DNA of 63,948 nucleotides, the filler included, from Welwitschia mirabilis (Eukaryota): assembly GCA_051453625.1 (NCBI GenBank). It is 7 parts of one record of this genome, joined end to end, with 100 filler letters (N's around TTAATTAATTAA, not from the genome) between each part and the next. Parts side by side here need not be neighbours in the genome. Positions count along the whole stretch, not along the records: positions 39,854 to 55,255 come from JBOZIK010000001.1; positions 55,356 to 59,392 come from JBOZIK010000001.1; 5 more parts are not named here. One strand, 5' to 3'. The notes below the pieces were generated by a model, which saw only the letters and a program-made list of their open reading frames with translations, was not told the origin of the DNA and ran no database searches. The position numbers and the translations under genes were made by a program. Positions 39,854 to 56,810 of the stretch are shown in pieces. Each line of letters starts with the position of its first letter. Within the stretch, counting starts at the first letter, position 1.

Positions 39854-40068
39854 TTTTTTGGCCAACATTTTGTCGACTAATCTCCGACTCACCGACATGA
39901 CTTTCATTTTTGAGGTTGCTGGCTTTTTACTTTTGCCGACTTTTTAAACACTGGTTGGAATTGATCCTAGGTTTTGTTGTGCATGTTAGTTAATAATTCT
40001 TAATGTTAAAAAAATTATGCTTAATTAGGATAATTAAAGTCAAGGTGATACATAATGGTATCAGAGCC
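39854..40068 (+). mobile_element. LTR end (40052) and tRNA-iMet PBS (40056-40068) of another LTR element
   Basis: GGTGATACA TAA TGGTATCAGAGCC. Confidence 0.75.
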
Positions 40069-41219
40069 TAGGTCATGTCTATGTTAATTACGTGAAAATA
40101 AATTTAATTATATCCATTATAAACTTAATTACTAATTAACTAGAAAATTAATTATATTCATGACAATCTTACTTTGGTGATAGTCTCATTAATAATATAG
40201 GTCTTAAGGACAACATTCATTAAGGTTGACGAAAGTAGTTTAGAAGTATTTTGTATTACACTATTCGAATTACTTGATAGCCTAAGTTGGTCTCAGTTAG
40301 TAACAGTCTGCCTAACTAATTTAGGTTATACAAGGTCAATCTTCCTGACAAGTCTATTCGGTAATCGAATAGATGTTCATTTAGATTAATTGCATTTGCA
40401 TTGTATTGCATGTTTACTTTCTTGCATTGTTCTTAAATTTAGGATGCAATATTTTCTTCAAAAACCAATTCTCCTTCTTGTCTCGTATACCTTCAACGGA
40501 TTTACAACATTTGGGTCACTTCCATTTATAATAGTTGTTGTATTTTGCAATATATCTATTTTGATTAATAGGATTCAGTAAGACGTAAAAGATTTGCAAA
40601 AATGCGCACTGCAACAGAGGTTATCTAATTTTGAATGTTTGGATAGCTTTTCTCATAAAAACTTTCTAACACAATTATTATCATTTTCATAGTGAATTAT
40701 GAAAATTACAAACTAAGGTTAAATAAAGATGCTATCTTATTTTGACAAGGCCTTTAAGAAGAGTAAATCATCATCTGATTAAAAGTTTAGTATACTTAAT
40801 ATCCAAGTAATTAAGGTTTACAAAGTATAGTATATGACAATAGGGGAAATAGAATAAGTAATAATAAAAAATAAAGAGGTGTTAAGAAAATCTTATCATT
40901 GATAGACCATCTTCTCCCTTCAACAGGAAGACTTTTTAATCTTTTTTTTTAAATAACATCAATAGCTCTTATGTACATTCATTAACTTTGGGTAATCCTA
41001 AACAAGACACCATAGATCGTCATTCCACAATATCCACATCTCAAATTGCCAACAATTGCAGTCTGAAAGTACATGTACAGTTTCATGAAATAATCGATAT
41101 TACAACAAATAAATTACATAAGGAAGAAAGCAACTCTTGCTATAATGATAACAAACCACTGAGTAACATTAAAATGGATTGAGCAAGTATGACATGTGAT
41201 GCAAAAATGCAGGGAGTCC

Positions 41220-41848
41220 TCAGGGACCACTATTGGCTACCCTCATCTTATCAATCCATTGTTTCAGAGAAACTTTAGTGTTCCAAAACCAAACAAAAGT
41301 CAAATTCTTTGCTCTGGTTCATGCAATGCAGAGTCTCCATGCTTGCATTAAGAAGAGAATCAGCAAATATCCAATTAGCATCTTCATTCATGTCTGTAAC
41401 CTGAAGACCATACTTACAGAGAATGGCATTCCATGTGGGGCCTTTATCACGCATGGCCTCGCTCAAACTGAAACCTTCGCGGTCATAGGGTGCCTCATTC
41501 TGAGCCTCGGGAAGTCGTAGCCCAAATGTACTATTCTGCAATAAGTTCGGCCTCAGACATATTAAAGAAGCCATTCCAGCAAGCAGATGCTGTTACCTAG
41601 ATATTTGAAGGCACGACCCTCGTACTTACATGGTAGCATACACAGACAGATTGCTCATTATGTTCACTGTACTCCAACTCTATGGAGAAAATCCCAACAA
41701 GACATTGTTAAGCCTGTGCACGGACCATGTCATCTCCTCCTTTCTGGACGCTGCATCGAAGAGCATATCCTTGAGAGCGTGGTAAAAGTTTCGCAGTGAG
41801 AACAGACGAGGCAGAGGCAGATCTTCCATAGAAGGGGCTTTCGCCTTA
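41220..41848 (-). pseudogene. VEP1: Progesterone 5-beta-reductase/iridoid synthase-like (PRISE/VEP1) 3' fragment
   Basis: EDLP..RL...NFYH-L-D, MTWSVHR, GFSP, VYA-CKYEG, AELIAE, AQNEA, AMRDKGPTW, NW-FAD, MNQSKEF, NT-VSL-QWIDKMR; stops, frameshifts and an internal deletion. Confidence 0.9.
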
Positions 41849-42440
41849 TTGCCCTAAAAATACTTTCATAATCAAAGCCATCCAGTAAAAGCCCTAGAGA
41901 CCTTCTGGTCATCATTTTCACCACTCTACGCCTTACAGACGCAACACGTTTATAGTCGCCAAGAGATTTCTCCAGCGAATGGCTTGTGAAGGATCCATTA
42001 CAAATCGAAATAGGGAGATCTTCATCAGAGTTTCCATAACTGAATCACCCTTGAGATTAACGATCTTCCCCGAATCCCAGCATTCATTCCTTCCTTCACA
42101 ATTCCGGTTCTCCGGTCCCCGAAATCAATTCCTTGTCTTCTTTTGCATCATTCAGCTTACTAACAACGTTCTGCACATAATTGATCCCAAAAAATCGCAA
42201 AAGAAAAATAAACGAAGCGAGTTGCGCATCAATGGCAACAAGCTCCCCAAAACTGACGACATAAAGGGGAACATTGGTCCAAATCTTTTCTCTTGACTGG
42301 TGCATCAGAAAATACGAGGCGCTGAAAAATAGCACAAAGAAAACCTTGTTGAGAAGATTGACGGGCAAAGGCAAAGCATCATATGCCTTGGAATGGATCT
42401 TTTTCGTACTCTTGGATGATGTTAAAGAAGCCATTTTCAT
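41849..42440 (-). pseudogene. HMGR: HMG-CoA reductase exon-1 fragment (membrane domain, linker, start of catalytic domain)
   Basis: KAYDALPLP..L-NKVFFVLFFSASYFLM..REKI...PLYVV, ASFIFLL-FFGINYVQ, SHSLEKSLGD-KR, LDGFDYESI-GQ. Confidence 0.93.
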
Positions 42441-42502
42441 TGTTGCAAAGTCTATGAACAGGCGGACCGATTTGGGGATGGGAAAAAGGCCTTTCCAGTT
42501 TC

Positions 42503-42642
42503 CTCTAAGCAAATTTAGGCACGCCAACTGTGAAGCCAATCATATGCCTCAACGATTCTCACTGAATGCAACCATTTTTCAATACCAATCAACTGTGCAT
42601 ACTTTCCACATAAACATGCAACCTCATAGTGACATGTGTAAA
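42503..42642 (-). pseudogene. HMGR: HMGR exon-3 end, 61-nt intron (42562-42622) and exon-4 start, placed upstream of exon 1
   Basis: LH..VTM..E|GT...CAG| then a decayed VGTVGG and LASQLACLNLL (plant consensus LASQSACLNLLG). Confidence 0.75.
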
Positions 42643-42682
42643 ACTTATTTAAGAGTTAGCAACGAAGTTAATAATCTTATTT

Positions 42683-42695
42683 GGCTCTTATACCA
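42683..42695 (-). promoter_or_regulatory. tRNA-iMet primer-binding site
   Basis: TGGTATAAGAGCC (12/13 match to TGGTATCAGAGCC), 2 nt after ...TCTTTCA. Confidence 0.75.
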
Positions 42696-42697
42696 AT

Positions 42698-42880
42698 TGA
42701 AAGATTTAAGAGTCTTAACAAGAAATGAGCAATGAATAACAAGCAAACGTTCAAATTTCATGTTTAAAATGAGTAGAGTAATTGATGCCCACATTAGTGA
42801 GGTTGTGTATACCGTTAACGTTACATTGTATTTATACATAGAGTCTCATAACTATATTTCATAAATGGCTAAGATAATTG
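42698..42880 (-). mobile_element. Short LTR of the gene-carrying element (remaining bases at 54380-54390)
   Basis: Ends TCTTTCA; TATA box GTATAAATAC near 42830-42839; matching start TGAAAGAC lies on the far side of the Athila insertion. Confidence 0.65.
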
Positions 42881-45800
42881 TGGAAGCATTCTTTTGCAAC
42901 TTGAGTCAATCCATGGAAATGCACAATTAGGGACTGTCTAGTCCTTTATTCAACTTTATTAAATGAAAAGTTAATTGGAAATCCCAACAAGGACTAAGTA
43001 AATTCAGAGTAACAAGCAATTTCAGGTTTTAAGCTATCAAAGGAAATGTTAAACAAACACTAGAAAAACTAGCTAAAGGCAAAGAAAGCAATGCAATATG
43101 CAAAACCTTCCTTTTTACATAGAGATAAGCTCCTGTCCAAGCTTATACTTCAATTGCCAAAATCCTGGTCATAAAGATAATTAGTCTTTGTGAGTGAAGT
43201 CCATGATAGTCTGATTGATTAATCTTTCTTCTACTTACACTCTTTGCAAGGTTTATGAGAAAGCAAACAACTGTAATTAAAAATTTGACATCATAAAACA
43301 ACTTAAAAATCCTTGAAAGTAATCATAGCTTAATAAGCAGTTGCATTTCAAATAAAAGGGAACTTACAAACCCCTTTCTTTTCATTGTCACCAAAAAAAG
43401 CAGTTTCACAAGATGACTTCTTATTTTTTGTTTGAGCTTTTTATTGATTAATAAAAAGAAAGAGAAGACTCCAACAATTTAGCATAGAGCATGGTCTGTT
43501 TTACTAGTTGGTTGATGGACATTTAAGGCTTAACACTAGGCAGTTTAACTGGTCAATGGAGATAGTGTATAGAAATATTGTATATATAATTAACATTCAG
43601 CATATACCATGTTCGTTCCATGGAGGCTAATAAGGAAAATATGGCACTTCTAATAAGAGTCTATAATTCTTCTTCTAGGTTGAATACTTCCTATCCTTTG
43701 CTTTTGCTATTGCGTTTCTTTCCCTTTTAAAGCTTTTCCAACATTAAGGAAAACACCATCATTCACAATATTATAATCTAAATCCTTAATAATCAATTTA
43801 TGGGAATGTTATATCATAAAACGATGCTAAAAACTTCTCTTTTTTTTGCTCTTACACCATCCCCTAGCCAAATCCTTTGACAATTCCTACAAAAAAAATC
43901 AAATTATATAAGGGTAACAGACTATTTCTAGTGCCTATACACATGGTTGGAATTGGAGTAAGAGCATGATTAAAATCATACCAAAATAAATGTGAATATG
44001 TTGCAATTGAGGATTTAAGACAGTACAGGTTATGGTAATAACTATTCAATTACACTCAACCAGTAATACACATGTGCATTCTTAACCACTTAAATACAAT
44101 TTTTTTTTGAAGCAAAAGCACCTGCTAGGATGATATGTAATTTGTTCGTCCAAAAAAAAACAAATGCAATCTAAGCATAATGTTTGAAAATTGCTAGAAG
44201 CATTAAGAAAATGGCAACGATATAAATGTTTTTGCTTAAAGGAAATTTAAAGTTATTATCATCTAATTTCTCTTCAAGAGTTCCATACTTGCATAGAATT
44301 GTTTAATTTTAGAAGGGATAAAGCTACCTCCTACCTTAACAATGTAAGTCCATTTCATTTTTGTTAATTTGTAAAAGATGCCTTGCCATAGTTTCTAAAA
44401 TCTAAACATCATGTCTATTTCCTACAGAAAACCCCAATCTTGGATTTCCAATAGTTTATGTTATTGCTGCTCTATGAGATGAAGCTGTTGTCTTTGTTGT
44501 GTTTTTTATTCTAGAACAGAGGTACGATGCTCTTTAGCCACCTCTCTAATCTCTCTGATTTACTTTAAAGATACATCAAGAATTATTATATGTCTATCAA
44601 ATATGGGCTGACTATCATACACTATCTAGGTAGCCTGTTCTGACGGCATATCCCTAACATCTGCCTTAGTCCTGATCTATTATTATTTAGAATGTTGTGC
44701 CTCATCTAGCATCTCCTATAGATGCTTCTTTACTATCTTTGATTTCATGGTAGTTAGGGCGTCGATTAGCTTTCTCTTCTCTTTAGTAGCTTTCCCAATT
44801 TTTCATTTTGACCTAGTGGAGTTCTTGCTGGCTTTGTTGGTTGAGGGCTCCTTTTGAAATTTTTTTTTTTTTAGGTTGTGGATCTTTGTTAAATGGAGGC
44901 CTTATTTAATTGAACTCGTAGGTGTTTTGCAATTTTCATTTTTGTTATCATTTTCACTAGTAAGTCCTATGTTAGTTCATACCCCTATTGCTCCATTGTG
45001 TTTTATTTCTTACATGTGGAGGGTTCCTTGCATGTTACATTTCTGTTTTGTTGTTGCTTTATCCTTGATTCGATTCTTTTCTTGATTTATTTGGTAGAGG
45101 TTGGTTTTTCCATTTGCTCAAAAAGAATGTCCATAGTGTGAAAATATTCATGATGGATCATGCAAAAGATTACATTCGAAGAAATTGAAGTATGCGAAAA
45201 ATCAAAAACATATTTATTTAAAAAAAAAAAACTCTTCCAGCGGTATATTCAAAAGCTCTTACTAGCAATAGCGATACTAATGCTGGATAGTTTATGTTTG
45301 AGCAATACACCAATGCTATTAAGGGGAAAAATATTCATNNNNNNNNNNNNNNNNNNNNNNNNNNNNNNNNNNNNNNNNNNNNNNNNNNNNNNNNNNNNNN
45401 NNNNNNNNNNNNNNNNNNNNNNNNNNNNNNNNNNNNNNCTAGTGCTATTAAGGGGAAAAAATATTCATGCGTAAAGACAATATAAAGCAGTATACTATAA
45501 ATAAAGTGTGAATAAAGTGAAAAAGAACTTAAGCATTAAGCTTTTAAAAAGGAAAAAGGATTGATTATAAGATAAGTGTTCTTTTGTTTAAACAATCCTA
45601 CTTTCATCGAAGGTATGTCTACTTGAAAATAAGAACTTAAACGAAAAGAAAATGGACTATTGGAAAAAGAGTATTTCGAACATTCGTGATAGCAATGGAG
45701 TGATGAAGTCAAAATGTAGTTCAGTGTGTTGATCCAAAATAACACTAGTAATTTCTAGGACTTAGCACAGTGTGTCTATTTTCTATGGGATGAGTCAGTG

Positions 45801-48800
45801 TTAAAAGGAAGGTTATGAAGTCGACACGTGTAGACATAGTTGACTAGAAATAAAATGAAATTTGATTTTATTATAAACACTTTATTTATCATAAGTATGT
45901 CATGTGGAGGTTCAGTTTTGTAATGCAACATTATATGTACAATGTCAGTTCTACTGCTTGTAATCAAAATAAAGCATAGAGAATTTAAGAAAACTCAGAA
46001 TTGACATTGTACATACAATGTCAATTCCAAAGGTTCTTGGGACATTTAACAGCAATACTTTCATGGTATTAACCTTGTCTTTCAATGTTTTTCTTGTTCC
46101 TTTATGTCTATGACTCTTGGACTCTGCATGTTAATGTTTTAATAAGGTATGAACTGGAATCAATTTCTGTCATTTAGGAAATCATTTAATTACTTAAGAA
46201 ATGGTTAGACTAACTGTCAATTATTCTTAGGCATAGTTAAGCAATCGAAGAATGTGAGTTACAGATATTGAAGATGTCATCACACATCAATCTCATTAAC
46301 CATTGAAATTGTACCCTAAGTAGCCCTTTAACATACTTTAAAAAAAAAAATTTAAAGAGAGTTATCTTATAGTTAAAAATAACAAAGGAAATGATGAAAA
46401 TTAGGGCTATTAAAATTGTAGCTTCAAGAGGACCAGATTGTTCTTTTTGTCTTTTTATGGCTAAAATTCATTTCCAAGTCTAATGCATCTCTATAATAGG
46501 TGTATTTCCTAGACAGAACAATGGATTGTTAGCCAACTGTGCTCCTACTAGATGATACAACATCAGTTTAAACCATCGAATTCCTCCTCATGGAGTTTTG
46601 CACCACACAATTGACATCTGTAAGAATTAATAATACTAGAATCCATCAAACAATTTAACACCAAAATTCTGGATAGTAATTTTAGAAAATCTAAACTATC
46701 CTGATAAGAATTAATAATACTTATCATGGATTGTGAGCACCTAATGCTTCCCCCAAATCTTGAGACTTAAGGATTTTGCCCCTCTTTTCAATTTTGATTT
46801 TAGTTGTATCAGTGTGGAAGATGACTATTATTATATACATATATATATACACTATATACATTATATACACAAAAGCACTTTAAGAGATACTTACATAATA
46901 ACAAATGATGGGAGTAATAATTTTTGCCCTGACTCTCTAAGAAAAATTTCCTCAATTAAATTTAAAGATTGCTTTACAATGTTGTGAGGAGAATAAGACT
47001 TTAGCTGTTGACCATTCACCATAAAAATGTTGTTTCCTTTAAGATTTGCAATTGAAATTGATCCATTAGTGTGTTGTTTTATAACCATGTAGGGGCCTTT
47101 CCACCTTAATATTAACTTGTTATGAATGCTACTCAGTCTAGAATTAAAGAGAAGCACAAATTCTCCTTTTTCAAATGATTTTCTTTTGATGTTCTTATCA
47201 TGATATTTCTTCATTTGGGCTTTGATAATAAGTTTTTGGTTCAATGATTGGGTTCTTTCTCATCTAGTTTATGTAGATATTCTATTCTTTTATCTAGGTT
47301 TTATTGTCCATTAGTAAGATTGATTATGGACAAAGTTTTAAGAGACCTATGGACCAGGCTCCTAGGTAGGAGATATTACTTTTCATGCGTAGGGAGTAAA
47401 ACCCAATGCAGTTTTAACCATAATATGGTAGGATTATAATACCTCATCTAAATTGATACTCCAATTTTTTCTATGAATATTGACCAGTTTTTATAGCATC
47501 TTTTTCAACTCTCTCTTTGTTCTTTCAGTTAAACCATTTGTTTGGGGGCGATATGCATTCACTACCCTGTGTTGAATGCCATTTTTCGTGAGCAATTTTT
47601 TAACTATTTTATTCACAAAATATGTTCCTTAATTAGAAATTAAAATGTGAGGAAATTCAAACCTACTTAGGATATTAGTTTTTAAAATTTTACAAACAAG
47701 TTTGGCATCATTGGAGCTCATTGCTATAGCTTTAACCCATTTTGTCATGTAATCTACAGCTACCNNNNNNNNNNAAATGAAGGAGGAGTTAAAGGGCTAA
47801 TAAAAATCAATTTTATAATAGTTAAATGGTTCACATTCTATTATCACTTAGAATGACATTTGATATCTCCTTGTAATTCCTCCATATGTTGACATTTATC
47901 ACATTTTTTTTTACAAATTCATGAGCATCTCTAAATAAAGAGGGTCAATAAAACCTTGCACATAAAACCTTGATAGCTATTTTCCTCCCATCAAAGGGTT
48001 CTCCATCCACCTGTCCATGACAGAATTGTAATATTTCTTCTTGTTCCCATTCCGGTATGCATCTTCTAATAATGTAATCTACACATGTTTTAAACAAATA
48101 CAATAAGATCCAAAAGCATCTAGGAATTTAGTTTAGATACATTTTTTGTTCAATTGGCCATCCAATATCTAGGAGTGTGATGACATTCTAAATAATTGGC
48201 AATTACAGCATACTAAGGATCTTTAGAGGATGTGTTAGAAGTTTGACAAGAAAAAATGTGTTCATCTAGAAATTGGCCATAAGATTCATCATCCTATGTT
48301 TTAGATTTGATTAGTAAGTGGGAAAGGTAATTAACTACTGTATTATCATTCCCTTTCTTGTCTATTATTGAAATATTAAATTCTTGTAAATGAATAATCC
48401 ACCTCAAAGCTCGAGAATTTAATTAGGATTTAGACAACATATACCTAATGGTTGTATGATCTATGTGAATATTAGTGTGAAAGCCAACAAGATAGTATCT
48501 TAATTCATATAATGATAGCACAATAGCTATTAGTTCTCTCTCAATGGTTGAATAATTGGTTTGATCTGGATTTAGAAATCTATTAAAGTAAGCAATGACA
48601 TGATTTTTCTTGTCAAGTTTCTATTCTAAAATAGCTCCTATTGCATAATTGCTAATATCTGTTATTAATTCAAAATTAAAGTATCAATTAGGACCTTGTA
48701 ATATAGGAGCAATTATCAATTTTTCCTTGAGGTTTCAAATGTTTGTTGGTGATTATAAGTTCATTTAAAAGCTGTGTATTTTTCCTAACAAATTGTGTAA

Positions 48801-51800
48801 GGCTTTACAAATCTTTGAACAACCTTCAATAAACCTTCTACAAAAGCCTACATATCCAAGGAATGATCTTAGTTGTTTGAGAGAGTTGGGAGGCTCTAAA
48901 TTTTGGATTATGTTACTTTTGGAGGGTCTATCTCTATATATTTTTTAGAAACAATGTAGCCTAAAATTACACCTTTAACAAGCATAAAGAAAGATTTTTC
49001 CTAACTTAATTTTAATCCACTCTCAATGCATCTGTTCAAGAAATTTTCTAGGTGTAAAATTGTTTAGTCAAGGAGTCACCTCATACTAAAAAATCATCCA
49101 TAAGAACTTCCATAAAATCATCAAGCATATTTGTAAAAATACCTTACATAGCTCTTTGAAAACTTCCTAGAGCATTACACAATCCAAATAACACCTTCGG
49201 AATGCATAGGTGCCAAAAGATAAAATGAAGATTATCAAAGCTTGATCTTTTAATGTAATGTGAATTTGGTTATAACCGTTGTACCATCTAAGAAACAGTA
49301 AAAATTATGCCCTTGTGTTTTATTAAGTACTTGATCAAGGAATGGTNNNNNNNNNNNNNNNNNNNNNNNNNNNNNNNNNNNNNNNNNNNNNNNNNNNNNN
49401 NNNNNNNNNNNNNNNNNNNNNNNNNNNNNNNNNNNNNNNNNNNNNNATGCCCTTATGTTTTATCAAGTACTTGATCAAGGAATGGTAGATGGTCTTTATT
49501 TGTAACTTGATTGAGTCTTTATAATATTATACAAACCCTTCATTTATTCTTTCTCTTAGGGGCAACTATTATTAGACTTACCCACTCACTATCAGCAATG
49601 GGATAAATGATTGATATTTTCATCCATCACTGTTAATGATCTCTTCCTTCACGACTTGTTTTAAGACTAGATTTAGTCTTTTTTGGGGTTCATGTATAGG
49701 TTTTACCTAGATTTTGTGTTATACTAGATGTGGAGGAACACCTACTAGGTCTCTATGAATCCAAAAAAATGCATGATATTTCTTTTATAGTAGTGAAATA
49801 AGGTTCCCTTCATATTTAGCATTTAATTCTAAATTAATCACTAAATGTTGAGTTATGTTCTCTTCCATAAATACATATTTAAGATGCTATAGTAATTATT
49901 TCAACTAAAATTCTATTGGTCTCTTTTCTTGTTGAATTTTTAGATCTATGATTTCTCCTTCCTTACTTAAATACTAGGTAGATTTTGAAAGGCCTCTTCT
50001 CATATCCTTCATGGAAATTATTTTAAAGGTTTGAATAGATTCTTGCTTTTGTGTATTTTCATCTCTTAAATCACAATTTATCTCACATGGGTCAAATGAA
50101 TATAGGTAGTTTTTAAGTAGTTATAATTATAAAGATGTCCAACAATAAGAATTTGATTCCCCCATTATTCAGAGAAGTTCCTCTTTGCTCTTATTNNNNN
50201 NNNNNNNNNNNNNNNNNNNNNNNNNNNNNNNNNNNNNNNNNNNNNNNNNNNNNNNNNNNNNTCTTGAATGTTTTTTAGCTACATTGTAAACCTTTATATC
50301 AAACTTTTCACTCCCAAATTGCAAGGTGAGGATGTCATTTTAGGTATTAACAACTCCATTTGCAGTTGCTAATCATGCTCTTCCTAAGATTAAAGGATAA
50401 CCATTGCTTTTTGTTACTTCTAGCATAACAAAGTCTATTAGATAGAATCCTCTATCAACCTAAATCACTAAGTCTTTTATCATGATTATATCTCTTTTCA
50501 AAGAGTCATCTTTCATTTCTAAGACAACAATAGTAGGTTTAAGTGGCTTTATAGTTTAAGTGTTTTCATAATATGTTCGAGCATCATGTTTATACTTGCT
50601 CCCAGATCTACTAAACAATGTCTCAACCTAACAATGCCCTCTAAAATAATAGTTAAGGTTGTTGCCCCTAGATCCTTATACCTCGGGCTTTGATGCTAAG
50701 CTACAAAAATCATTGATCATCCAAATAAATTCTTTTAGGAAGTTTTCTTTTATGATTTCTCTTTACTAAATCTCTAAATGCCTTCTCATACCTTTTATTA
50801 TTCCTCAATAGTTTTGAAAGAGGCATAGGTAAAGATGCTTATTTCAAAAAGGTTTCTAACTCAAAACTCAAATCCTCTTTATTTCTTCTTAATCTTTTAG
50901 CAAAAGGTGGTTGTTCCATGGCTGGCATTGTTGTGTTTTAGCATTCCAATTTTTCTTCTTGGATATTTTTCTTTTTTCCTTCTAATTATTGATTTTTTTT
51001 TACTTCTATTTCCTTCCTTAAATCACTCCCTATCCTTACTCTATTTATAGTTATGGATTTTAAATCTTTGATTTGATTTGGATTTGGGTGGCTTATTGAA
51101 GGTAAGATCCCTGCGTTTCTTATGTTGGAGTACAATGTTTATTACATTAATCCTACAAGCTTATTTAATTTTTCATTAATGTGCGTCATAACTTGCCTCA
51201 AATTAGTGAAAATTTTTTTCATGTTTTATTGCAAGAACTCCAAGTTAACTAGAGGAGATTAGGTAGAGGTTGCAAAGTAGAAGTAGTTGGTTAACTATAA
51301 GATGGAAAGGTAGATGGGTTTGGGCTTATCAATAATCTCATGTATTATTTCTAAAAAAGATAGCCCCATAAGGTTTTTAGAATCTATTAAAATTAGTTTT
51401 AAGACCTTGGAAGGCATTAGGCTATGGATTTTGATTTATGTTATTAAGTGCACATAATTCCTCATAGACATTGTTCTAACAGAAAGGAAGAGCAGGGCAT
51501 TTTTCCACCTCATGATCAAGATCTTGAGAAAGTAAGCACTTTTTTTTCTCAATAACAATTTCTTCCTTTGTTTTTTTTATTAGTTTTTTTTTACTTCAAG
51601 TTCTTTATTGTAAGAGCTACCTTTTCCAATGTTTTTGTCATATTTTTCAAAGGTTCATCTAATGCTTGTTTGATTACAAAGACTTCCTCACTCAACTTGA
51701 TGCTTTTCATTTGTCTCAATTACTTTCTTAGCAGGGGTAGTTCATTCTTTGTTGTCTGCCATGATTTAATCTATTCTGGTAGTGATTATAATTTTGATCA

Positions 51801-54379
51801 ACATTGATCTAATGGAACTTTCATAATATTCCCCCCATAGGCACGATCCATTATTTGTCGAGTCTTTGGCAAAGACCTTCTATAAAGTAACCTACTAACT
51901 TCCAGTATTCAATATTGTTTACTGGGTATATAGTAATGTAAGAGGAGAATCTCTTAAAGGATGTGACATAATCCTCCTCTTTTAGCTATCTAAAACTAGT
52001 GATTCTTTTTCTAAGTCTTTGAACTTTGGAGTTGGTAAGGTATCTGTTAAGAAAGGCTCTTTCCATTTGATCTTGCGAAGAGATAGAATGATGGACAAGA
52101 TGGTAGAACTACTTTCTCATATTTTCTATGAGTGCCATTTTAAATACCATCAAATAGAGTCTATTAATGATCGATTTTCCTAATGTGTAAAGAAATGGGT
52201 CAAGATCGATTAGGAATTGTAATGGATCATTAATGTGTCTTTCCCATTGTATTTAAGCTATGCACTTAATTTTTTTATCTCCACATCCTCTTCATCTTGC
52301 AAATTTATTGGATTGTAAATTTTCCAATTTCTTCTTTTTAGAGCATTTATCAAAGTTCTTAGAGCTGGAGGATTACCAACCATTTTGTGAATACTTTCAA
52401 TCTTAAGTTTAGATTCTTCTTTTACCTCCAATTTGATGAGAAATTCCTCAATGAACTTGGGATCCCTTAATGATAAGAAAGAAGACTAAAGGATTTTGGG
52501 AGTCCCTTCTTNNNNNNNNNNNNNNNNNNNNNNNNNNNNNNNNNNNNNNNNNNNNNNNNNNNNNNNNNNNNNNNNNNNNNNNNNNNNNNNNNNNNNNNNN
52601 NNNNNNNNNNNGATTTTCCTAATGTGTAAAGAAATGGGTCAAGATCAATTAGGAATTGTAATGGATCATTAGTGTGTCTTTCCCATTGTATTTAAGCTGT
52701 GCACTTAAATTTTTTATCTCCACATCCTCTTCATCTTGCAAATTTATTAAATTGTGAATTTTCCACTTTCTCCTTTTTAGAGCATTTATCAAAGTTCTTA
52801 GAGCTGGAGGGTTACCAACCATTTTGTGAATACTTTCAATCTTAAGTTTAGGTTCTTCTTTTACCTCCGATTTGATGAGAAATTCCTCAATGAACTTGGG
52901 ATCCCTTAATGATAAGAAAGAAGAATAAAGGATTTTGGGAGTCCCTTCTTCAGACTCTAATTTTATTATTTCATCAGGGGAGAAGGCTACTTTTAGAGTA
53001 TTACTTTGTGAGCCTGATACTGATTTTCCACAAGTTACATTTATGATCACTTGATAAGATGAAAAGGGAAAGTCTTGCTTTCCAAAAAGTGTAGGCAAAT
53101 TGATTTTTTTTTTTTGGTTTTTACATAATGCGTTTGTACTCTTAATAATCAAAAAGACCAATTTTTATGTTTTCTCTAATAAATTTAAATTCTTTAGTTT
53201 CTCATTTCTTTGACATATAAAAGAAAAAAATTATTCTACATTACACTTAAGTAAAATGCAATTGTCAATAAAAATTATTGCAAAGGGGTAGAAGTACTTA
53301 GATGTTGAATTGACAAAAAGAAATAAAGAAGACCAAAATCCTAAACAGACTGATACCTCCCCGATAACGACATCAAAATTTGGAAGCATTCTTTTACAAC
53401 ATGAGTCAATTTGTGGAGATGCACAGTTAGGGTCTATTTGACCCTTTATTCAAATTTATTGAATGAAAACTTGATTTAAAATTCCAACAAGGACTAATCA
53501 AATCTAGAGTAAATAAGCAATTTCATGTTTTTAGCTATCAAAGGAACAATTAAATAAATACTAAAAAAACTAGCTAAAGGCAAAAAAAGTGATGCAATAT
53601 GCGAAACTTTTCTTTTTATAAAGAGATGATCTCCTATCCAAGCTCATACTTCAATTGCCAAAACCCTAGTCATAAAGATGATTGAAGTCTTTTTGAGTGA
53701 AGTTCATAATAGTCTAATTGATTAATCTTTCTTCTATTTACATTCTTTGCAAGCTTTATAATGAAACAAATAATTGTAATTGAAAATTTGACATCTTAAA
53801 ATAGTTTAAAAATCCTTGAAAATAATTACAACTTAATAAGCAGTCACATTCCAAATCAGAGGGAATTTGCAAATGCCTTTCTTTTCATTATCACCAAAAA
53901 AAGCAATTCCACAAGATAACTTCTTCTCTTTGTTTGAGATTTTTATTTATTAAGAAAAAAAGAGATAAGATTCCGATAATTTAGCATAGAGCATGGTCTA
54001 TTAAACAAGTTAGTTAATGGGAATTTAGGACTTAATACTTGGCAGTTTAACTACTCAATGGAGACACTTTATAGAAGTAGTATAAATACAATCAACGTTC
54101 AACATATACCGTGTTCATTCCATGGAGACTAATAAAGAAAATATGACACTTTTGATAAGAATCTCTAATTCTTCTTCTAGGTTGAATACTTCCTATCATT
54201 TGATCTTGCTATTTCTTTTCTTTCCCTTTTAAATCCTTTCCTACATTAAGAAAAATGCCATCAATTAGTCTATTGTAAGTATCATTTGCAATATTATAAT
54301 CTGAATCCTTAATAATTAATTTCTGGGAATCTTACATCATAAAACAATGCTAAAAGCTTTTCTTTTTTATGCTTTTATA
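42881..54379 (-). mobile_element. Full-length decayed Athila-like gypsy element (about 11.5 kb)
   Basis: LTRs at 42881-43856 and 53381-54379; PPT GGCTAGGGGATGG next to 43856; decayed tRNA-Asp PBS TTTGATGTCGTTATCGGGGA at about 53358-53377; flanks ATTG(T)/ATAGT. Confidence 0.92.
46891..53161 (-). pseudogene. Athila gag-protease-RT-RNase H-integrase, heavily disrupted
   Basis: Gag at about 51.5-53.1 kb; protease LVDLGASIN at about 50.6 kb; RT SEWVS, FGLCNA, MDDF; RNase H NYSTIERELIA; integrase C-term MKKYHDK...VLLFNSRL...WKGPY...VNGQQLK. Confidence 0.92.
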
Positions 54380-56810
54380 ATAGTCTTTCATCAGAATCTC
54401 ATAGATACATGGATCATTCATGTACCTATACAAGCTCATCCTCTCAATTCAATAATGAATCTAACTTTATTGAGAATGTTGGCATTACATTGCTATCACC
54501 TCCTATGTTTTATTTGTATTTTTGAACTTGTGTGCAACGTCTTCCCATAAAAATGTTCTCTAACCTATGCCATCACTTGACCCTTATTTTTTCTACTTTG
54601 AACCCAACAGTCATAATTCTTTTGAGTCTTTATTTTAACATACCATTAAAGAAAGTCTTAATAGTTAAAACATGAATTGGTGAAATCATTTCATAGGAGA
54701 ACAAGTGTTAACCAAAGATGTTATTCAATCATTCCCTTAAGCCTCTTTAATTATTCACGTCATTCAATCATTCCCTTAAGCCTCTCTAATCATCCATGAC
54801 ATTTTCCAATAATCCCATTAAGCTAGTAAATCATCCACCCTCACATTGACTTATGAGTTTATGAGACTTACAAACCTAGGTTAATGGCCTTTAATAAAAA
54901 TCCATAATAAGCAATTTTGCNNNNNNNNNNNNNNNNNNNNNNNNNNNNNNNNNNNNNNNNNNNNNNNNNNNNNNNNNNNNNNNNNNNNNNNNNNNNNNNN
55001 NNNNNNNNNNNNNNNNNNNNATTCCCTTAAGCCTCTCTAATCATCCATGCCATTTTCCAATAATCCCATTAAGATATTAAATCATCCACCCTCCCATTGA
55101 CTTATGAGTTTATGAGACTTACAAACCTAGGTTAATGACCTTTAATAAAAATCCATAATAAGCAATTTTGCTATCATTTTAAGTAATGGTTATGATTAAG
55201 TGCACTTATGGGTTTTTGGGAAAAGTTACACCCACTTTAAGTATGATTATTAAAGNNNNNNNNNNNNNNNNNNNNNNNNNNNNNNNNNNNNNNNNNNNNT
55301 TAATTAATTAANNNNNNNNNNNNNNNNNNNNNNNNNNNNNNNNNNNNNNNNNNNNCATTCTAGGGTGTCAATCCTAGATTCAAAAGCAATGGATTCGTCT
55401 TAGGTAGGCGTAACATCTTGGGTGGCACATGATTGTGGAAGAAGCCTTCCTTAGCTGTAGTGCGGTTTACAACTATGGACATTGACCTTCCAAAACAAGA
55501 GAAGTTAGCCCTGTTTCTCATTACTATTTGACATGAAGTCTTGTACCTCCTGAACTCAAGTGAAGGGCAACTGCATCAACGGTTTCTAGTTCCTGGGCAT
55601 CTGTGTTGTTTTGTTTATTATTTATGAACATTGTATCATCTTAATTCTTTTAATGATAAGAGTTACAACATCATCTTTGGCCAGAAGGTTGGCAATTTGA
55701 TTAATGGCAATTTTACACAATCCCTGGACAAAGGCAACCACTAAACTCAGACATTTTTATCCTATATATCCTATCTTTCATATAAAAGTAACTGATCTCT
55801 TTTTAATATTCACCTTCCACATAAATAAAATAAGATTTTGTTTTGGTTGGCAACAGAATGTCATATATTGATTGGTGAAAAACTTACTTGTGATGGCCAG
55901 GATCATTCCAAAGTGGAAGAATAAAATTCATCATTTGCAAACCAGCTAACTTGTTTTTAACTTTTTATTCAGAGCATGAATCAAATCACCTGAATTACAA
56001 TTTGAATTCCTAGTCAATTTTTGCTTCTATGCTCAGTTCCCATTCTTTCTTTCTGAACTGTGGGAATAGTTTTAATAGTTAAATTGCATTCCATTGTAAT
56101 CAAACCTCCTCAGGTTCCCAGCAGAGAATAGACTATTGTTCACATTATTGATCTTTTAAGCTTATTCCTTATCAAAGAACTCCATTCATTTTGAGTTATT
56201 ACACAGAATGGAAAGTTATTTCTTTAACTTGTAAAATTGTGCGCACAATATTTGCTTGGTCAACAGGATCCCCAAAAATAATTTATTTTTGACATGTCAT
56301 TTGGACTTAATTGCATTGATATTTTATCAATCTTGAGATGCTAAGTTGTAACCTTTTCATTAGATATGTTTACATACCATACTGCTATCCTTAGCTGAAA
56401 TGCTTGTTTCTAGGTTGTGAGAAACACCATTTATTATTTTTGTTTGTTTTTTTAAATTCCTGTTAAGTTTTACAATGTCACCATCATCATCGTTCTAGCT
56501 GTTTATTCCATCTACAAGGAATTGTTGTGTGATTCCTATTTTTCTATTTTGTAATTTAAAACTATATTTTTCCCCTGGTTGTTATGCTGGTTTTATGTGG
56601 ATAAGATGTTTGCATTTACTGTTTTGATATTTTGTTAATTCTTTCATTGTGCGTTTTCATCTTCTAGACTTTATGGATGTGCGCTATTGAGAGATTTCCC
56701 CCTCAATAATGTTCATAATTTTAGAGTCCTCGTCTTGCAAAGCTTGCCTTAAACATGGATGGTTTCTGTTCATATTACATTGCTAACCATTCAATTTTAT
56801 TTCATTATAG

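Follow-up and report, generated by a model that had tools for sequence, protein, structure and literature searches.

Host-gene fragments, probably captured from mRNAs, in a truncated copy of a gag/pol-less short-LTR retrotransposon family of Welwitschia mirabilis

Results

Organization of the locus

The sequence analysed here (the window) is the whole stretch of 63,948 nucleotides, filler included, of Welwitschia mirabilis DNA (assembly GCA_051453625.1), in which seven parts of one record are joined end to end. The studied locus is one of these parts, at positions 39854-55255, and maps to contig C1 near 29.95 Mb in a genome of 6.27 Gb. It holds a decayed retroelement with short long terminal repeats (LTRs), in which pieces of two host genes, HMGR and PRISE/VEP1, occupy the internal region. 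The following features were recognized, where PBS stands for primer-binding site and UTR for untranslated region:

54380..54498, minus strand: 5' part of the element's 5' LTR, starting with TGATAGC and aligning to positions 1-119 of a complete family LTR; matched by family copies L022-L040
42879..54379, minus strand: nested LTR retrotransposon of 11.5 kb inside the short LTR, with direct repeats of about 1 kb
42698..42878, minus strand: 3' part of the 5' LTR, with the end TCTTTCA, aligning to positions 116-300 of a complete family LTR; a repeat family (428 candidates)
42683..42695, minus strand: PBS TGGTATAAGAGCC, 2 nt past the LTR end, with one mismatch to the 29-mer formed by LTR end plus PBS
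42554..42682, minus strand: non-coding 5' leader of the family, 76% identical to the leader of L046 and aligned with L045, L046, L047 and L050
42508..42553, minus strand: 46-nt piece of the HMGR last exon, 80% identical to L049:6509-6554, joined to the leader over an 11-nt microhomology
41848..42491, minus strand: decayed HMGR 5' piece, 549/650 positions identical to the intact gene L049, 5 indels
40957..41865, minus strand: 3' two-thirds of the PRISE/VEP1 coding region plus 3' UTR, 764/899 positions identical to the intact gene L048, 8 indels
40931..40950, minus strand: A-rich tract joining the PRISE 3' UTR to the family arm, likely a poly(A) remnant or capture site, with A9 at 40950-40942
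40840..40930, minus strand: start of the family 3' arm of about 730 bp, about 90 nt retained, including TGAAGGGAGAAG; matches arm starts in L041, L042, L043, L045, L046, L052 and many more places
40073..40839, no strand assigned: unrelated high-copy repeat with LTR-like ends, truncating the element; DNA word depth of hundreds to tens of thousands

A preliminary description, made from the sequence of the window, had proposed an LTR of about 190 bp starting at 54390 with TGAAAGA as its inverted end. However, 19 family copies (L022-L040) align from about 54460-54499 down to 54380-54390; because they extend the LTR to 54498, TGAAAGA is internal, and by this alignment the LTR measures about 295 bp (54498-54380 plus 42878-42698). 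The other end was present as described, with TCTTTCA at 42698, a 2-nt spacer, the PBS at 42695-42683 and a TATA box (TATAAA, 42836-42831, minus strand); the A9 run was also as reported. The PBS is presumably of the initiator-Met tRNA type, and no tRNA was detected in the window with ARAGORN. The 29-mer of LTR end plus PBS had 48 genomic matches at two mismatches or fewer, compared with none for the reversed control. The outer flank of the LTR is GGAGG (54503-54499).

The insertion that splits this LTR is indeed a nested LTR element, although its bounds shift slightly from the 42881-54379 first given and its assignment to Athila was not confirmed. Its two LTRs are identical at 822/973 positions, it is flanked by ACTAT (54384-54380) and ATTAT (42878-42874), and a weak integrase match lies at 47646-47497; its two longest clean open reading frames gave no retroelement match in Pfam.

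At the opposite end, neither the rest of the arm nor the polypurine tract (PPT) and the 3' LTR were found in the 50 kb searched leftward, N gaps included (1558 N at the stretch edge). At 40050-40839, the LTR-like high-copy repeat directly abuts the reverse-oriented PBS of a third element, an arrangement that suggests loss of the element's 3' end by deletion or recombination.

A multi-copy family without gag or pol

Two genome searches with the LTR returned 428 and 1038 first-look candidates, 40 being scored each time, and 44 family elements, several of them reached via cargo searches, were annotated. They share a fixed frame of LTRs of about 300 bp with the ends TG/TA...CA/TA, a PBS (in all), a leader, a 3' arm of about 730 bp (in most), a PPT and target-site duplications (TSDs) of 5 bp. 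In complete copies, the PPT is the purine tract AAGGGGGTGAT at the far end of the arm, abutting the 3' LTR, whereas TGAAGGGAGAAG, previously proposed as the PPT of the window copy, is the start of the arm. Among the best 30 loci with PPT plus LTR, the arm was found upstream in 28, and the other two were 5' LTRs.

Two LTRs were present in 36 of the 44 elements, which span 1.6-8.7 kb (all at least 1599 bp; median 3317 bp). Identity within LTR pairs was 77-92% (median 82.3%; 33 pairs measured). A TSD matching in at least four of five positions was seen in 19 of the 29 placeable elements (8 perfect; 7 elements not placeable), compared with 32/812 for mismatched pairs. The family members are old, independent insertions. 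Two near-empty members, L204 and L211, with middles of 874 and 262 bp, could serve as a baseline for the frame of leader and arm. Tandem forms were also seen, namely L146:1683-6104 with three LTRs and two arms and, outside this family, L018 with two units of HMGR plus middle; N gaps lie between the units, and they may be assembly artefacts.

The coding capacity of the middles was scanned against Pfam with stop-free segments (323 of the 382 extracted from the first 29 elements, and 129 from 15 more) plus short pieces. No gag family was matched by any segment scanned in the 44 middles, and the 21 segments scanned from the arm (of 26 extracted), examined for coding remains, matched no Pfam family at all. 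Pieces of pol occurred in 3 of the 44 middles (L043, L045 and L112) and were nested or foreign, that of L045 being antisense. In the window copy, the four longest stop-free cargo segments had no match to any Pfam family, in agreement with the initial view that no retroelement coding sequence is present there. The 5S rRNA-like sequence by which Cassandra elements are recognized gave no Rfam match at gathering score in four LTR-holding loci. The family is thus a non-autonomous LTR retrotransposon without gag or pol of its own.

Several candidates for an autonomous partner were rejected. The pol of L043 belongs to a nested Copia element with its own LTRs, and that of L112 comes from a large family, which we take to be SIRE, five checked relatives of which had no short LTR. 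L088 and L116 have inserted into Copia elements of other kinds, and L278 is a sister-family LTR sitting inside the LTR of another element. A 256-aa frame in L247 had neither a Pfam match nor pol downstream, and a gag-like match (DUF4219) in L249 came without the family LTR. L112:2357-9181 is a family element in which a GH9 piece runs into the 3' portion of an unrelated high-copy Copia, from the integrase to the end, and matches to five relatives of that Copia begin at a single common position.

The HMGR and PRISE pieces of the window copy

The preliminary description had assigned 42642-41849 to HMGR; the gene is indeed represented there, at 42553-42508 and 42491-41848, but 42682-42554 is family leader. 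The assignment of a PRISE/VEP1 3' part was borne out. Both parental genes were sought and found intact, HMGR (L049, with introns; Pfam HMG-CoA_red, PF00368) on contig C2 and PRISE (L048; Pfam PRISE, PF22917) on C14, and identity to them is 84.5% for the HMGR pieces and 85.0% for the PRISE pieces. The HMGR 5' piece comprises upstream flank, the membrane region, the linker and about 30 codons of the catalytic domain, the greater part of which is absent. The PRISE piece has an 81-bp deletion and no N-terminal nucleotide-binding motif, and its first 18 nt overlap the HMGR match as a microhomology. The cargo has accumulated 13 indels, substitutions in which G>A and C>T prevail, and many stops, and the two reading frames differ across the HMGR|PRISE joint.

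At many loci the family LTR is accompanied by PBS, PPT and TSDs that differ from locus to locus, as the proposal of a mobile element had anticipated, but the same chimera was found nowhere else: of 48 candidates, 40 were scored, and the window copy was the only one joining HMGR to PRISE. Nor was the idea of a meaningful fusion of two isoprenoid genes supported, since the chimera was found once and is out of frame, and its siblings join the same PRISE end to expansin and GRAS pieces rather than to HMGR. The HMGR-PRISE pair likely makes no protein. Because about 20 unrelated kinds of cargo occur in the family with no pathway theme, the pairing is likely due to chance, although co-expression of HMGR and PRISE could also have contributed.

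Cargo of other family members

Host-gene Pfam matches were obtained in 17 of the 44 middles. They comprised EF-hand, expansin, GRAS, PRISE, glyoxal oxidase, A1 aspartic protease, kinase and GDP-mannose dehydratase/epimerase pieces, as well as SAM synthetase, GH9, sugar transporter, P450, annexin, GT47 and IRX15; the match in L104 was weak, and L055 also carried PMEI. Behind further PBS matches, 4 of 19 loci held DUF604, UDP-glycosyltransferase, SOR/SNZ and plastid Ycf9 pieces. The last of these, a plastid psbZ/Ycf9 piece at L122:1073-1261 (L145), directly follows a PBS of the family type; the arm comes about 3 kb later, and an N gap covers the LTR position. Methyltransferase and RRM pieces had been suggested by visual reading of L046, but Pfam gave no confirmation and they were left uncounted; a YpmT match in L237 (E 2e-4) was discarded as likely chance.

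The pieces are shared between copies as a mosaic: L041 has its 5' part in common with L102-L104, its expansin-GRAS-PRISE block with L081 and L084, and its GRAS piece with L042. This wide variety of cargo inside a single family is the unusual part, the mechanism itself being already known.

Route of capture

Three of three examined intron positions were lost, all in sibling cargo. A GT-AG intron of about 97 nt in the expansin genes L187 and L188 is missing where the exon ends are joined in L041, and introns 1 and 2 of the sugar-transporter gene L222 are missing from L087. At the 3' side, the PRISE 3' UTR ends at the same point and is followed by an A-run in the window copy, L081 and L055, and this run is absent from the parent L048. 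When members without PRISE were included, an A-rich tract before the arm (at least 11 A in 20 nt) was seen in 8 of the 17 elements in which it could be placed, compared with 0/17 for a control interval.

The joints between pieces were compared, as pairs of parental sequences, with 5000 random pairs of sequence windows. At the HMGR|PRISE joint, a stretch of 18 nt is common to both parents, and only 5 of the 5000 random pairs scored as well; the 11-nt microhomology at the leader|HMGR joint was equalled by 24 of 5000. Partial mRNAs, microsimilarity at the joints and chimeras of several genes have been described as marks of LTR-mediated retroposition (PMC5131818). Intron loss, the A-run, the microhomologies and the mosaic middles together fit such retroposition by template switching.

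The element in the window is therefore most probably a decayed member, truncated at its 3' end, of a multi-copy LTR family without gag and pol. The family likely took up its host scraps from mRNAs when reverse transcriptase switched templates, and it likely spread by borrowing the enzymes of an autonomous element. Element RNA and host mRNAs would have been packaged together, and the reverse transcriptase would have passed from the A-rich edge of the arm onto the tail of a PRISE mRNA, giving rise to a PRISE-bearing lineage that would include the window copy, L041, L081, L055 and L084. A later switch could have set the HMGR pieces before PRISE in the window copy, at the place where its siblings hold expansin and GRAS. 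After insertion, another LTR element would have split the 5' LTR, and the 3' end would have been lost.

Several observations weigh against this history or narrow what carries it. For HMGR, the RNA route rests on the siblings, because the window cargo spans no intron position, and L222 is a 70% relative of the L087 cargo rather than a proven donor. The A-rich tract was placeable in only 17 of the 44 elements and strong in 8. The joint between the HMGR last exon and the HMGR 5' piece has no significant microhomology (519/5000), and the joint windows were picked by eye ahead of testing. The PRISE end recurs in several insertions, but the PRISE tree did not resolve the cargo copies as one clade, and the form with HMGR plus PRISE occurs once. 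Some cargo is antisense, as is the glyoxal oxidase piece in L042. In 27 of the 44 middles there was no Pfam host match, many being AT-rich and decayed, and 17/44 is not an unbiased rate, because cargo searches had led to several of the 44. No autonomous partner sharing the LTR ends was found among the loci checked, and the window copy, with its 3' LTR missing, has no matching TSD.

Some of these points would also suit a real family that had gained its HMGR and PRISE pieces as DNA, with genomic sequence copied into the element during microhomology-guided break repair or replication slippage. Microhomology fits DNA repair equally well, such signals have been described as hard to tell apart (PMC13477047), and antisense or plastid-derived cargo (Ycf9 in L122), like a window cargo that spans no intron position, raises no difficulty for this explanation. 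However, entry as DNA accounts neither for the precise loss of three introns in sibling cargo nor for a PRISE piece that ends in its 3' UTR at an A-run which the parent does not have, and we consider it unlikely.

A 3' UTR followed by an A-run, together with 5' truncation, is also the classic signature of long interspersed nuclear elements (LINEs), and processed pseudogenes made by them could have landed at an A-rich target in existing elements to be carried passively. This origin is less likely still, given that the HMGR pieces have no 3' end or A-tail, that the middles differ wholesale among copies and share pieces mosaically, and that no duplication flanking the cargo was seen by eye in the joint alignments.

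Transcription of the cargo

RNA coverage was evaluated in two raw-read runs from two studies (about a quarter of each) and one contig set guessed to be RNA. At 95% identity or more, 48 and 35 reads were placed in the two runs; 24 and 15 were partial, some of them clearly parental. Depth was about 1-5 across 41219-42478 and zero across 40274-40903 and 42584-43000. Carry-over of DNA is disfavoured, because the repeat at 40274-40903 has zero RNA depth and a DNA depth in the thousands. A 949-nt contig from the set guessed to be RNA crosses the HMGR|PRISE joint. No other locus among the 254 fetched reached 95% over 100 nt of the cargo (best 91/100). With respect to transcription driven from the LTR, the cargo was covered and no reads lay over 42584-43000; the libraries look unstranded. 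None of the indexed datasets holding the locus was recorded as RNA, which makes them uninformative on expression, and a DNA run under a second organism label contains the locus with few differences. The HMGR-PRISE pair is transcribed at a low level.

Reads from two studies over the cargo and not over the flanking repeat, a contig across the joint and the presence of the insertion under a second organism label are what would be expected if the chimera were a selected new gene of the terpenoid pathway or a regulator of its parents. Nevertheless, the joint is out of frame and the pieces carry stops and 13 indels, the HMGR catalytic domain is mostly absent and the N-terminal nucleotide-binding motif of PRISE is missing, the depth is only about 1-5 in a quarter of each run, and at least 20 other kinds of cargo show no pathway theme; this proposal is highly improbable. 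A simple deletion product at the locus of one parent, HMGR or PRISE, that happened to lie beside an LTR agrees with the chimera having been found once but is refuted, because the LTR recurs with PBS, PPT and TSDs and the intact parents lie on C2 and C14 rather than on C1, and because the cargo is enclosed by family leader and family arm.

A sister family and other HMGR and PRISE fragments

Among 18 HMGR-like loci examined, one was the parent and seven (L005, L006, L009, L013, L015, L018 and L019) carried modules of a second element; the LTR of the family described above was present in none of the 18. The second element is a sister, with an LTR of about 417 bp (2183 first-look candidates) and with the PBS type and PPT region of the first family; an example lies at L260:4020-6320, on C17 near 66.40 Mb. 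The fragment that this sister family has amplified comes from the 5' part of the same HMGR gene. In L013 the match to the arm was confined to its last 75 nt, and this locus led to recognition of the sister family.

In the HMGR tree, the seven sister-module loci plus L016 formed one clade (99/98), with the window copy outside; the tree was otherwise star-like. The window fragment was closest to the parent gene (84%), a pattern suggestive of independent capture from that donor. The HMGR fragments of a third group (L004, L007, L008, L010, L011, L014 and L017) all end at almost one point, about position 1065-1077 of the parent slice, and have modules of neither LTR family. In the flanks fetched for further PRISE fragments (L082, L083, L063 and L054), neither the family LTR nor the arm was found; the first three of these fragments form a clade beside the PRISE parent.

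Beyond template-switch capture in the window copy, a wider picture can be drawn tentatively, which we regard as possible but rather less than probable: a dedicated 'Pack-LTR' lineage of hundreds of enzyme-less elements, in two sister families with a common PPT region, may act as a standing vehicle for exon shuffling. The A-rich arm edge would hook poly(A) tails, cargo would be traded over many rounds, and favoured donors such as one HMGR gene would be recaptured; some products, HMGR-PRISE included, would still be transcribed and might return small RNAs to act on the parental genes.

Discussion

Gene capture by LTR elements has been reported as widespread in plants (PMC3726574, PMC8764390, PMC13477047). 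A close parallel in mechanism is with the animal LTR retrocopies of Tan et al. (2016; PMC5131818), in which, as described there, partial copies of mRNAs stand between two LTRs in place of the internal region, joints have short shared sequences, a locus may draw on several parental genes and further non-autonomous moves occur. Those are presented as individual young loci without poly(A) tails, whereas the Welwitschia elements form an old plant family of many mosaics with a fixed leader and arm and an A-run at the joint of the PRISE lineage.

The preliminary description had likened the element to the gene-carrying elements of the TRIM (terminal-repeat retrotransposon in miniature) or maize Bs1 type. 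The comparison stands for a non-autonomous short-LTR element with host pieces in the manner of Bs1, a plant LTR element with fragments of several host genes (PMC13317346, PMC5131818). However, Bs1 is described as having 1-5 copies, the same switch points and a translated chimera (PMC13317346, PMC5131818), in contrast to at least dozens of full copies with differing cargo in this family and an out-of-frame chimera in the window copy. The TRIM label fails on size, all 36 two-LTR elements being above the miniature range at 1599 bp or more. Gene-carrying TRIMs (Gao et al., 2016; PMC4717578) are likewise non-autonomous, with short LTRs and 5-bp TSDs, and their cargo is also reported as exon-only fragments more than 70% identical to host genes, sometimes from several genes. 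That study counted 30 of them, from 7 of 289 subfamilies, with lengths of 1172-1449 bp (TRIM average 685 bp); the present family differs in its median of 3.3 kb, its 300-bp LTRs and the frequency of host pieces within one family, although Table S12 of that study may hold a greater variety of cargo than its text (PMC4717578).

Fixed ends around a variable mosaic of host fragments are also known from Pack-MULEs and other Pack-type DNA transposons (PMC13317346, PMC4717578). As characterized in those papers, Pack-MULEs have inverted termini and keep introns, whereas here direct LTRs, PBS and PPT are found and introns were lost at the three tested positions. A named Pack-LTR class was not found in the literature searched, which was mostly open-access and does not show the family to be undescribed.

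Gene capture by LTR elements has usually been documented element by element. One family with dozens of datable insertions, known donors and mosaic cargo allows counting, and with it countable tests of the template-switch model: intron loss, joint microhomology, use of the A-rich entry site, donor bias and capture order. Counts of the HMGR or PRISE gene families in this genome would be inflated if such pieces were included, because 7 of the 18 HMGR-like loci are cargo of sister-family elements and not genes.

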